Positions 4,804-30,262 of a DNA stretch of 64,000 nt are shown here, in pieces (position 1 is the stretch's first letter; every line of letters begins with the position of its first letter). Origin of the DNA: Octopus vulgaris. Its lineage: Eukaryota. The position numbers and the translations under genes were made by a program. The stretch covers positions 15,376,001-15,440,000 of the forward strand of contig OX597829.1 of assembly GCA_951406725.2 (NCBI GenBank). The letters are read 5' to 3'. The notes under the pieces were generated by a model that searched no databases, had not been told where the DNA came from, and was given only the letters and a program-made list of their open reading frames with translations.

Positions 4804-5000
4804 TTTTTAATGTCGAGAAGAAAATTACGCAAATTAAATAGGGTTGAAAATACCGCTAGGGGCGAATTCCTCCCTTGGAAAAACACTCAAATGAAAGTTG
4901 GGTGCCTTACACACCTTATTTACAAAAATGTACACAAAATATGGGCTATAAATAGTCAAAATAAACGATTACCTTCGGAGCCGAAGTGACAGCACGTCCG

Positions 5001-5167
5001 TAGATAAATAGATAGATAGATAGATAGATAGATAGATAGATAGATAGATAGATAGATAGATAGATAGATAGATAGATAGATAGATAGATAGATAGATAGA
5101 TAGATAGATAGATAGATAGATAGATAGATAGATAGATAGATAGATAGATAGATAGATAGATAGATAG
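5001..5167. repeat. (GATA)n microsatellite at Tx1 5' junction
   Basis: Near-perfect tetranucleotide array directly after ...AGCACGTCCG. Confidence 0.98.
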
Positions 5168-5519
5168 AGTCAATATATACAGTAGTGACGAGACGGTAAA
5201 TGGTCTACGTTGATGGCCATTTACTCGAACTACTGAGCGGATGCCGCTGTATAAAGCAGCGATCCAACTGCGAAAGACTGGACCGAAACCAGTCGCCTTA
5301 AGGACAGCCGTCAAGTATCTATGGTCGACACATACCATGCCATGTTCCTTAACTACCTTGAGGTGATGGTTGTCATGGATATTTCTCCCTCTATTTTATT
5401 TCGCTCTATCGCTAAAGCCTTGCTATAACTAAGCGATTCTGCTTTAATTGCCCTCTATTGGGAAAACAACCAATCGTTGTTGACAATGTCTCCCGTCAAC
5501 TCCCTCTTAACTAATGCGT

Positions 5520-5955
5520 CCCCAAAGTCCATCCCCTCCTCACCGTGGTGGGGACGCTGGCAACGGGTAGTGTCAGAGCTATGCCGTCGGGAACCTCGGT
5601 TTCTGGCAGAGCCACCCAAGGCGGATTGGTCGGACACCGAGTGGTATTAGGGCCACAACCCGGAGAAAATCCTCGGAGTGTCTGTTTTGGCAACCGGCGG
5701 CTCCTCGGTCGTTCTGTCCCTGCGTCTGCAGACTTCTGTGGCAAACAGGATGTCTTTACATGCGGGATTGTTGGGGACCGCTCGTCAAATCCACATATTC
5801 CCACGAAACTTCTTCTTCTTCTTCTTCTTCTTCTTCTTCGTCTTCTTCTTCTTCTTCTTCTTCTTCTTCTTCTTCTTCTTCTTCTTCTTCTTCTTCTTCT
5901 TCTTCTTCTTCTTCTTCTTCTTCTTCTTCTTCTTCTTCTTCTTTTTTCTTCTTAT
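5520..5955 (+). mobile_element. Short non-autonomous retroposon with RTE-5'-like head and (TTC)n tail
   Basis: Flanked by the 9-bp direct repeat CTAATGCGT (5511-5519 and 5956-5964); removing it restores the Tx1 sequence. The GAGCTATGCCG...GCCACCCAAGGCGGA motif recalls RTE/BovB 5' regions. (TTC)n tail at 5809-5950. Confidence 0.7.
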
Positions 5956-6371
5956 CTAATGCGTTAATACAGTCTTTGTAAACTTGTTGAGCAGGAGCAA
6001 TGCGTTCAATTTCGAGTATCCGGGACCCTGCCTATGATCCTTACCTAAATCGAGCGTACAGGTCACGAATTTTTGATCTGCGTAACGGACTATGGGAAAT
6101 TGTGGACAACCTACATTATCCCTATCTACTGTCCTTCTGAATACTCTATCTAAATACGATCTGGACGACTCAATGCGGTTGGTTCATGTCCACATTGGCA
6201 CAATCGAGTGGAAACAGCTGAGCAGGTCTTTGAGGCATTTCTATCCCTTTCTCTTCCTATCTATACCTACATAGTCTAGACGCGTGTCCAAGATAGCTCG
6301 AGACGTTTCCATGAAAACCTCTAGACGTCGAAGGAAATCCGCCTGATCTGATAAGGACGGTGCACATACCT

Positions 6372-6775
6372 GTTTCTTTACTACCCACAATGGGCTACAC
6401 ACAGGAGGGACAAACAAAGACAGACAAACGGATCAAGTCGATTACATCGACCCCAGTGCGTAACTGGTACTTAATTTATCGACCCCGAGAGGATGAAAGG
6501 CAAAGTCGACCTCGGCGGAATTTGAACTCAGAACGTAACGGCAGACGAAATACCTATTTCTTTATTACCCACAAGGTGCTAAACATAGAGGGGACAAACA
6601 TGGACAGACATAGGTATTAAGTCGATTATATCGACCCCAGTGCTTAACTGGTACTTAATTTATCGACCCCGAAAGGATGAAAGGCAAAGTCGACCTCGGC
6701 TTTCATCCTCGGCAGACGAAATACCGTTAAGCATTTCGCCCGGCGTGCTAACGTTTCTGCCAGCTCGCCGCCTTC
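6372..6775 (-). mobile_element. tRNA-derived SINE with a second, 5'-truncated copy nested inside
   Basis: Head is the reverse complement GGCGGCGAGCTGGCAGAAACGTTAGCACG; B-box-like GAGTTCAAATTCC; central GCCTTTCATCCTTTCGGGGTCGATAAATTAAGTACC resembles the Meta/MESC domain. Inner TSD GCAGACGAAATACC (6541-6554 and 6712-6725); outer imperfect TSD AGGAC(G/A)GTG(C/T)A(C/T)ATACC. Confidence 0.88.
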
Positions 6776-27100: not shown

Positions 27101-27554
27101 AGTCTAGATGTGTGTCCAAGGTAGCATTCCAATCCCCCACTAAAAGTAAAGGACGAGACGTTCCCAGGAATACTTCTAGACGTCGAAAGAAATCCGGCCG
27201 ACCTGTTAAAGGCGGTGCGTAGACTGATACGAGTCGAAAAGCGCACCCATTGCTGCCGTCGACATCCAGAACGATCAGTCTACCCTCCGGGTCTACGAAT
27301 ATCGTCTTGACTTCGAGATCCAGGCTCTTGTGAAAAAGTACCGCGGTGCCACTACCACCCATCCTCGGCAGACAGGGAGCGAAATAAATGTTAAACTGTC
27401 CGCCAAACATGGACTTTAGGGCCCGTGGCTCGTGGAGTCTGGTCTCACTTATGGCTATGATTCTCAAATCATGTGACTTGATGTCATTTAGGAGGTATCC
27501 TTGTTTCCAAGGAGACCACAAGCCACGCGCATTCACACAACCAATCTTGACCAT
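24164..27554 (-). pseudogene. Tx1 ORF2 (APE endonuclease, reverse transcriptase, C-terminal CCHC), broken by small deletions near 25810-25890
   Basis: NARGL, ISETRL, VGDWN, SYLDRI, YTDHK, GYWKLN, KSPGLDGLPYEFY, YADD and CPRC...H...C are present. QSKAFDRV is missing and there is one frameshift. Confidence 0.92.
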
Positions 27555-27604
27555 GATTCTATTGGGGTGTGTGCTTTAAAACACAAAATGGAAAGTACAG
27601 AGAG

Positions 27605-29717
27605 TTACTTTCTCGTGTCGAAAGTTTTGGCTTCCTCGTTCTTTGATGTGTCTTCGAGGAGGTTTTTATAAAGTTTTTGGGAGAGATATTTTTGGAAACC
27701 CCCTACGGCATTTGGGAAGAGGGCTTTGAGTTTGTGGTGTTGTGTTTGTGTGATGTGTAGTATTTTGATGTGTTTGGGTGGTGTAGTGCGTGGATGATTG
27801 CTATTTTTAAAGTCATCTTCACAGATGTTTGTGTAGCCTGTGATGTACTCCATTAGTTTGGAGTCTTTGGTGTCTATCGCTGATAGCATTGTGTGTGTTT
27901 TTGTGGTGTTGGTGCTTGTTTGGTTGTGTATGGAGTTTTCAGGGTTCAGGTATCTCCCTGCTTTGGTTGCGATTTCTTGTTTGGTTTTTCTTGATCTTTT
28001 TCTTTTCCCCCCTCTGGCTATTTGCCATTCTGTCGAACTTTCATCGTTAGATGAAAAGTCTGACGAATCAGCATGGGGTAAGGGTAAAGCGTCTGGGTCT
28101 GTTTGTGCGGTTGTAGATATTGTTGTGGTGCGCGGGGAGGGTGTTGCTGGGGGTTTGTTGTGGTTATTGTCTCTCCTACATCCTTGGTGCTTGTCTTCTT
28201 CGTTCTTATTATCGGTGTTGGAATTGGTTTAGTTGTTGTTGGTGGTGATGATTCTGTTCTTGGCGCTGGTGTTGGTGTTGTTTGGTTGGGTTGGCTTGTT
28301 ATTTGTTGTTTTTCATGCATTTCTGCATACAGCTTCTTGACTAGCCGTCCATATTGTTGTGTGGGCAATAATGCTGGCTTTTGTGGTTTTTCCTGTGGCT
28401 GTTGTTGTTGTTGTAATTTAGCGGCAGATTTGCACTCCTTTTTGAGGTGTGCCTCACTGCCACATGTATAGCATCGTGGCCTTCTGCCCTCGACTACTAC
28501 GTACAACTTGCGGCCATCCTCAAGATGTACGTGGGTGGGAATTTTATTGATGTCGTCTTGACTTATGTGGAAGAGGAACTCCATTCTCTTTCCCAGCCAG
28601 TCCTTGTTATTCGAAACACCGATATCTAGGATGTTTAAATCCTCCATTTCGGATGTTATGGCGGATGTTATCCACAGTGTTGTTGTTACTTGGGGGACAT
28701 TCTTGATAATGACCTTCGTCACTTTCTGGCCAAGGTAACTCGGTGTCATCGTTATTTCATCAGAATAAAGGGTTATCGTTGAGAATTTCTTCGCCAATTC
28801 TTCATTCTGAAAAACCACAAGTCACATAATCCTTGTATCCCCAGATGGGGCGTAGGCACTTTTCTATTTTGTCCGTGCTTGCCTTTTCTGGACTTTTAGT
28901 TTTTTTTATTTGTTATTTTATAAACAATGGTTTTCTTTTTTTCCTCATTCAGTATGTGTTGTGGTATGTGTAAGAGTATTTTGCCGTTTTCATTGGTGAT
29001 AAGGTTTCTGCAATCTTTTATTTGTTGTGTAGTAAACGAAACTCTTGTTACTTTTTCTTTTATCGCCTCGGCGAAGTTTGTTGTTGTTTTGTTATTGTTG
29101 TTACTGCCGGTGGTGTTGGTGTTGATGGCAGGGGTGTGGGTTGTAGGTTTGTGGTTGCTGATTATGCAACTAGCAAGGGGTGGAAAATTGTCTGCGTATT
29201 TTAGTCCTGCATTAGCGCAAATTTCGGCATTTTGTTTGGTTGTCGTTGTTATTTTTTCACTTGTTGGTGATGGAGTGAGCAGTGGTTGAAGGGAATTGTT
29301 GTTGTTGTTGTTGTTGTTGTTATTGTCGTTCTTGGTGACGGCGGTGGTGTTAGTGGTATTAGTAGCATTGATGGCACGGTCTTTGGTGGCGGTGATGGTG
29401 ATTTTGGTATTGTTATTGGTGGCGATGTCTTTAGCAGGGATAGCAGTTTTAGTAGCAGATGCTGCCATGGTGTTGTTGTCGGTGTTGGTGGTGGACTCAC
29501 TGGTGGTGTTGACGGTGCTTGGCCTTGCGACCTTTGTTTTGTATTTGTTGCTGTTGTCGATGCTGATGATGGTGGTGGTGGTGGTGAAAGCGGTGGTGGT
29601 AACCTTAGTAGTCTCTTTGTTGTTCTTGTTAGAGGTGGTGGTGGTGACAGGGCTGTCACTACAAGTGGTTGCAGCGTTTATTCCAAAATCATTTATGTTT
29701 GCACTTTGCGTGCACAA
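27605..29717 (-). pseudogene. Tx1 ORF1 (Thr/Asn-rich N-terminus, CCHC knuckle), frameshifted
   Basis: VEGRRPRCYTCGSEAHLKKEC; the C-terminal ICEDDFK..NHPRTTPPK motif is shared with 2944-3195. Confidence 0.85.
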
Positions 29718-29994
29718 ATTCTTTTTTTCTCCTAGCGTTTCCAGACTAGGAGAATGATGGTCGATAGAGGAACGCGAACATCGTTCTAAAATACAATTTC
29801 AAAATGACGAAAAGGAAATTACACAAATTAAATAGGGTTGAAACTGCCCCTAGGGGCGAATTCCTCCTTTTGAAAAGCACTCAAACGAAAGTTGGGTGCC
29901 TTACACATCTTATTTACAAAAATGTACACAAAATATGGGCTATAGATAGTCAAAATAAACGATTACCTTCGGAGCCGAAGTGACAGCACGTCCG

Positions 29995-30262
29995 TAGATA
30001 GATAGATAGATAGATAGATAGATAGATAGATAGATAGATAGATAGATAGATAGATAGATAGATAGATAGATAGATAGATAGATAGATAGATAGATAGAAG
30101 ATAGATAGATAGATAGATAGATAGATAGATAGATAGATAGATAGATAGATAGAAAGATAGATAGATAGATAGATAGATAGATAGATAGATAGATAGATAG
30201 ATAGATAGATAGATAGATAGATAGATAGATAGATAGATAGATAGATAGATAGATAGATAGAT
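29995..30262. repeat. (GATA)n at Tx1 5' junction
   Basis: Directly visible. Confidence 0.97.

Follow-up and report, generated by a model that had tools for sequence, protein, structure and literature searches.

Microsatellite targeting, including that of tetranucleotide repeats, is an established and often shifting trait of the Tx1 clade of long interspersed nuclear elements (LINEs) (PMC4494074). In teleosts, the families Kibi and Koshi are associated with (TC)n and (TTC)n, respectively, and crocodilian Tx1 elements with (TTCC)n or (TTTC)n (PMC4494074, PMC3812793); a Tx1 family has been treated as target-specific when one sequence type makes up more than 20% of its flanks (PMC4494074). Other microsatellite-specific LINEs include Waldo in (ACAY)n, Mino in (AC)n, Dong in (TAA)n, and Togen in (TG)n (PMC3812793, PMC4640811). 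The genome of Octopus vulgaris has been reported to hold 80 families of L1-Tx1 elements that occupy 56 Mb, with 13 of the families recently active (PMC13282606). As far as the accessible parts of that report go, no target preference is described; the word "target" is absent from its main text and GATA or TATC from its supplement. Here we describe a stacked LINE family in 64 kb of O. vulgaris DNA (contig OX597829.1; this whole stretch is called the window), which is AT-rich, microsatellite-rich animal DNA. The family is probably among the 80 already counted (PMC13282606), and its termini lie on (GATA)n tracts, which read as (TCTA)n in the sense of the element. We consider it likely that this octopod Tx1-type LINE uses target-primed reverse transcription to enter (GATA)n tracts and that repeated insertion has built the stack.

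Family termini and GATA tracts in the window

Self-comparison and translation resolved six pieces (A, B, C, D, E1, and E2) of one LINE family that encodes an apurinic/apyrimidinic endonuclease-like (APE) domain and a reverse transcriptase (RT). The pieces are arranged head-to-tail and share one orientation, as the initial annotation of this DNA had claimed; all six are on the minus strand, and none of them is intact; tblastn recovered no family piece past 30 kb of the window. When GATA runs of at least three units were counted on both strands of the window, they were found exclusively on the plus strand, with none on the opposite strand, and they grouped into six tracts that are all in contact with family pieces. 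None of the 59 perfect non-GATA di-, tri-, or tetranucleotide runs of at least 24 bp in the window lies within 30 bp of a firm family terminus, even though other microsatellites contribute about four times as much perfect-repeat DNA as GATA does (3526 bp vs 912 bp). The exclusive association with GATA that had been proposed for this locus is thus borne out. The TC/AG tracts of the window are also without any family terminus, and of the (CA)n and (TTC)n tracts that lie inside copy D, the latter is part of a separate insertion.

All seven firm termini are on GATA, namely the 5′ ends at 29994, 23578, and 5000, the 3′ ends at 23810, 19802, and 18539, and the truncation point at 19654. The termini initially annotated (with 18540 and approximately 19802 for two of the 3′ ends) agree with these coordinates within 1-2 nt. 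Because the seven share five tracts, they are not seven independent events. The three intact 5′ ends are homologous (91-93% alike over ~190 nt), start with CGGACGTG on the element strand, and share a single starting base relative to the tract. A fourth 5′ end had been proposed near 7275, at copy D. APE pieces do follow this end in the same orientation, but its homology to the other ends is weak: 500 shuffles reached the local alignment score 2 times for A, never for B, and 21 times for E. The layout first proposed also needed correction: positions 1-5000 hold two copies, E1 and E2, and copy D stops in the middle of the RT on the tract ending at 5168 and not at a true 3′ end. Searches beyond the two outer 5′ tracts (29995-30262 and 7285-7448) returned no element end at E 0.05.

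Homologous blocks of the copies are 70-94% alike, and several subfamilies are represented. Copy B is 77% alike to A in open reading frame 2 (ORF2) and 89-94% alike to E1; the ORF2 regions of A, B, C, and E2 differ by 19-26% and the 3′ untranslated regions (UTRs) by ~30%. Self-comparison revealed no duplicated host flank around the copies in the window. Copy A is full-length, but small deletions interrupt its ORF2 at two places, near 25815 and 25881; their sizes are 27 nt and 20 nt. Decay of the stack is also visible as microhomology joints within elements, both between E1 and E2 (1613/1614) and at the deletion in copy B (22399). The 5′ ends of the copies show no consistent fold (z -2.5, -1.3, and -0.3); in copy D, a strong hairpin at 7166-7200 on the minus strand (fold z -3.3), located in what is putatively the 5′ UTR, has no Rfam match.

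Table 1. Coordinates in the window of the LINE copies, the tracts that adjoin them, and the other insertions discussed
Feature	Coordinates	Strand	Description
Copy A	23810..29994	-	Full-length, 6.2 kb, two ORFs, decayed; start CGGACGTG, end AATAAAGAAAC
Copy A ORF1 region	27605..29798	-	Split over three frames; CCHC knuckle; N-terminus rich in Thr and Asn
Copy A ORF2	24164..27554	-	Predicted APE endonuclease (open frame from ATG 27554), RT, C-terminal zf-RVT
Copy B	19802..23578	-	Both ends kept; deleted internally between points in ORF1 and ORF2, with the joint near 22399
Copy C	18539..19654	-	5′-truncated; 81% alike to A; truncation point on the 19654-19801 tract
Copy D	5169..7275	-	Much-deleted relic; likeness of its APE and RT pieces 70-84%; SINEs and an insertion with a (TTC)n tail lie within it
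Copy E1	1614..5000	-	5′ end intact; ORF1 and APE pieces; cut at RT start
Copy E2	1..1613	-	Starts within APE; 77% alike to E1; continues past window edge
(GATA)n tract	29995..30262	+	Adjoins 5′ end of copy A; far side is host DNA free of element sequence
(GATA)n tract	23581..23808	+	Separates 3′ end of copy A from 5′ end of copy B
(GATA)n tract	19654..19801	+	Separates 3′ end of copy B from truncation point of copy C
(GATA)n tract	18333..18537	+	Behind 3′ end of copy C; distal part degenerate
(GACA)n/(GATA)n tract	7285..7448	+	Adjoins 5′ end of copy D; host DNA beyond
(GATA)n tract	5001..5168	+	Separates broken end of copy D from 5′ end of copy E1
Tandem SINE copies inside D	6370..6774	-	Last 40 nt resemble LINE 3′ end; no GATA flank
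SINE copy	16906..17139	-	Same LINE-like 3′ end; no GATA flank
Unrelated retro-insertion in D	5516..5953	+	290 nt; one-sided (TTC)n tail; flanked by a 9-nt duplication

The short interspersed nuclear elements (SINEs) in Table 1 have relatives of the same SINE family at 35659-35822, 36822-36990 (-), and 51211-51391 (+). Two types of 3′ end occur in this SINE family, a LINE-like type in three copies and another type in two copies that lie in or beside (TAA)n, which suggests that tails have been swapped between LINE partners. An end similar to that of the 5516-5953 insertion precedes a (TTC)n tract at 35993-36100.

Joints in public sequencing runs

Four of 24 listed public runs, three as contig sets and one as raw reads (X22), were compared with copy A plus 15-18 nt of the tract at each end. 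The element was covered in 30/30 bins in each of the three contig sets, with 17,703-61,530 contigs aligned per set. In all three sets depth, which is not equal to copy number, declines steeply in the 5′ direction, the profile expected of a LINE with many copies that are truncated at the 5′ end; in run X1, depth at the 3′ end exceeds that at the 5′ end ~13- to 20-fold. Among the 12 joint rows listed out of 514, apparently ranked by depth, 11 connect an internal position of copy A to the TAGA tract, which starts at 29995, and the remaining row joins a tract to the 3′ end of the element. The 11 GATA joints listed involve 10 distinct positions in the range 24094-25309 and come from runs X1 and X2, which bear different organism labels; the truncation joint at 24791 was found in both. 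Such joints are 5′-truncated copies elsewhere with (TCTA)n as their 5′ flank. Loose ends were listed for 22 rows out of 5220, and none of the 18 contig rows among them is at a terminus or microsatellite-like. Contigs that exit through the GATA stubs of the reference number 897/61530, 654/44359, and 257/17703 in the three sets, and the share of contigs continuing into at least 20 unlike letters beyond the stubs is 0, a value that is suggestive only, as its weighting is unstated. Set beside the published threshold of more than 20% of flanks (PMC4494074), the family has GATA at 7/7 firm termini in the window and at 10 truncation points outside it, the latter a count without a denominator.

Nine of the outside joints are exact, and seven of these nine have 1-3 nt of microhomology. 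All nine are compatible with a tract that ends in ...TATCT, as are the intact 5′ ends of A and E1, while the junction of copy C is in another phase. This pattern tentatively places the nick between T and A of the GATA strand.

Domains, relatives, and sister arrays

The translated ORF2 matches Exo_endo_phos (E 1e-13), RVT_1 (down to E 2e-25), and zf-RVT (E 2e-7) in Pfam, which corresponds to the order of APE, RT, and C-terminal zinc finger that marks the Tx1 clade. Elements of this clade have a separate ORF1 with a CCHC zinc knuckle, in contrast to the coiled-coil type of vertebrate L1. The octopod family likewise has a separate ORF1 with a weak knuckle (zf-CCHC, E 0.002 in both A and E1), and the same was seen in the intact ORF1 of the sister lineage described below, all of these matches being below the Pfam curated cut-off. 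The closest intact relative, P0004, is 66-69% alike and matches human L1 ORF2p at E 4e-50 vs E 4e-24 for R2, which points to an RT of the L1-group type. For the APE domain, the best matches are L1-EN constructs, and the nearest named ORF2 homologues are from Argonauta hians (52% and 72%). Judged from these sequence matches, the element belongs to the L1 group with Tx1-type anatomy, and the family is likely of the Tx1 clade. A quick RT tree of 53 rows (two of 55 were dropped for short coverage), built with no named Tx1 and no L1 outgroup, joined the RT from the window with P0004 and Argonauta (support 98), nested in a 24-row group (support 100) that sits in an open node beside turtle, cod, amphioxus, and coral proteins. 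The protein cluster atlas offered generic RVT_1/zf-RVT clusters alone, and the cluster look-ups returned no Tx1 names; the homology searches likewise yielded no sequence named Kibi or Koshi.

The turtle proteins in this tree, whose RT is 40-42% alike to that of the octopod group, carry a hairpin loop of the Tx1L type in the endonuclease. The corresponding loop of the window family is SNRSGSSR, with the pattern T/S-N-R-x-G/E-x-S-R, in which N-R is kept in 4/4 window copies; it has an L1-like length, is two residues shorter than the Tx1L loop, and differs in relatives. A contribution of this loop to target choice has been described for L1-type endonucleases (PMC1950540), and we treat the loop of the octopod family as a candidate lead on target choice and not as evidence.

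When an alignment of octopod ORF2s was used for searching, nothing was found in viral contigs and one unrelated locus was found in metagenome contigs, while the genome contigs yielded the sister lineage alone. A 16-nt pattern from the 3′ end matched 11 viral loci that were dismissed for having no likeness outside the pattern. The sister lineage comes from a bacterial metagenome-assembled genome (G001), in which 17 contigs (C3-C19; loci L002-L028) of animal-like DNA are assembly contamination. On these contigs there are 88 matches, the ORF2 is 37-42% alike to that of copy A, and the lineage joins the octopod group at support 100 in the quick tree. Its ORF1 and ORF2 encode 694 and 1155 aa; the ORF2s are mostly intact, with one orientation per contig, a spacing of ~6.5 kb, and up to about ten units. 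The array on C19 is internal, with host DNA on both sides and linkers that match the host flank behind the last unit. A telomeric nature of the arrays was rejected as far as tested, since the assembly has no TTAGGG triple and the C19 array is host-flanked; a LINE satellite is possible. No Rfam family was detected in the window or in 13 loci of the sister lineage, so neither an RNA-gene target nor a known ribozyme is indicated.

Proposed insertion into GATA, its rivals, and known systems

The observed anatomy, domains, orientation, and divergence of the copies, together with the presence of GATA at 5′-truncation points outside the window, are consistent with a mechanism in which the APE endonuclease would nick the GATA strand and the freed 3′ end would prime reverse transcription at the 3′ end of the element. 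The cDNA would then be joined to the TCTA strand via short microhomology, which would leave a copy in a single orientation with (TCTA)n on either side. Both tracts left by each insertion could serve as new targets, so that subfamilies would accumulate head-to-tail, and the stack would later have been eroded by microhomology deletions (B, D, E1/E2). The endonuclease specificity, the cut position, and the serial order of insertion in this scheme are modeled on the known behavior of the Tx1L and L1 endonucleases. A bolder version, which we regard as unlikely, has the family both targeting and multiplying GATA tracts, with each insertion splitting and lengthening a tract. The family would then be a main maker of octopod GATA microsatellites, feeding itself with targets, after a switch from the microsatellite-free stacking of the sister lineage.

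A number of observations weigh against insertion into (GATA)n. The joint of E1 and E2 has short microhomology with no GATA between the two pieces. Three SINE ends resemble the 3′ end of the LINE (last 40 nt, E 3e-6), and 0/3 are in GATA; either these SINEs were moved by another family member with a different target, or the targeting is not strict. Joints in the sister arrays consist of short locus-specific linkers and no microsatellite (for example, L028 in whole, L021 at 5200-6000, and L020 at 17350-17800), and stacking is therefore a habit of the lineage that needs no microsatellite target. In the sequencing runs, the element is absent from X22, where 12.9 million raw reads gave 123 partial matches, the joint table shows only flanks that are in the reference, and GATA words inflate the depth ranking. 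GATA is present at outside truncation points, but the listed rows favor GATA joints and give presence, not share. Finally, a fixed cut phase was not significant in simulations (P 0.07-0.29 at the observed microhomology and 0.007-0.07 without bias); the agreement in phase is unremarkable once microhomology is favored, which keeps the cut site tentative.

The most serious rival holds that GATA is a 3′ tail made by the element, that new copies either enter the family's own 3′ junction or arise by tandem amplification, and that the GATA at 5′ ends is the tail of earlier copies. Three of the five tracts with a firm 5′ end or truncation point do sit behind another copy (between A and B, B and C, and D and E1), short contigs cannot reveal what lies past a tract, and tandems of the tail-to-internal kind are known to arise from a preference for particular insertion sites (PMC5932611). 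Because the sister lineage stacks with locus-specific linkers in place of microsatellites, we keep self-targeting in consideration, although as a distinctly improbable explanation. The tracts at 29995-30262 and 7285-7448 are backed by host DNA and not by an element end, and the tract leading into E1 is not preceded by a true 3′ end, since copy D breaks off within the RT. A SINE that shares the 3′ end of the LINE has no GATA tail, and sister arrays are built of near-identical units (ORF2 matches are 100% between units in C13), whereas the copies in the window have diverged much further. The (TTC)n-tailed insertion in copy D is an internal control for how an element-made tail appears. Such a tail places the repeat on the 3′ side alone, while family copies carry GATA on both sides. 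An element-made tail also cannot explain 5′-truncated copies that break onto (TCTA)n at so many internal positions. As far as tested, then, the explanation by tails that the initial annotation had named as fatal to its proposal fails on the GATA found at 5′-truncation points, and the same joints extend support for GATA targeting beyond the window.

Insertion that is unspecific or weakly biased, with the association with GATA arising later through survival in a repeat-rich region or through microhomology deletions, appears very improbable to us. Copies B, D, and E do show microhomology deletions, and among thousands of copies a few dozen could adjoin GATA by chance and be listed first. This rival has to contend with the fourfold excess of other microsatellites that are without a terminus, with the placement of all tracts on one strand relative to the element, and with the start base shared by three intact 5′ ends. 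We give almost no credence to a local segmental duplication of one insertion, the other outcome that had been named as a refutation. The likeness of B to E1 and of the 5′ ends of A, B, and E1 is what such a duplication would have in its favor. It is largely refuted by the divergence of the ORF2 regions and 3′ UTRs and by GATA joints at many other truncation points outside the window; copies that differ by 6-30% and host flanks that are not repeated indicate that the cluster did not arise by recent duplication of a single insertion.

Insertion of the octopod family into (GATA)n would leave the concept of microsatellite targeting unchanged, as target shifts are common in the Tx1 clade; what would be new is the target repeat and the host. 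The few APE elements known to target microsatellites would gain a tetranucleotide of mixed purines and pyrimidines and a cephalopod host. Neither a LINE that targets GATA nor a cephalopod Tx1 with a specific target is described in the parts of the literature that were searched (PMC4494074, PMC3812793, PMC4640811, PMC8869645, PMC4758252, PMC3124438, PMC9115989, PMC13282606); an entry in Repbase or Dfam is possible. The mechanism by which APE endonucleases change their targets has been called not well understood (PMC3812793), and the GATA-bound octopod family and its microsatellite-free sister, with their unlike hairpin loops, form a natural pair for this question. On a practical level, octopus GATA marker loci may often adjoin a high-copy LINE.

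Compared with Waldo, Mino, Dong, and Togen, the octopod family shares survival within abundant simple repeats, but those elements are of other clades (R1, R4, and NeSL-related) and use other repeats, with GATA not among them. With Tx1L of Xenopus laevis it has in common the two ORFs, an ORF1 of the CCHC type, and an ORF2 with APE, RT, and zinc finger. Tx1L differs in having a DNA transposon as its target and a loop (as grafted in PDB 2V0R, PMC1950540) that is unlike SNRSGSSR. The closest parallel is with Kibi, Koshi, and the crocodilian Tx1 elements, which are likewise APE-type LINEs of the L1/Tx1 group that occupy a microsatellite in one orientation with the pyrimidine-richer strand as the element sense. 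The termini in the window lie on (TCTA)n and not on the (TC)n or (TTC)n of Kibi and Koshi, and GATA targeting in octopods may be independent of these two families in origin. What sets the octopod family apart from all three is its host and a target, (TCTA)n/(GATA)n, that is not a pure polypyrimidine repeat.

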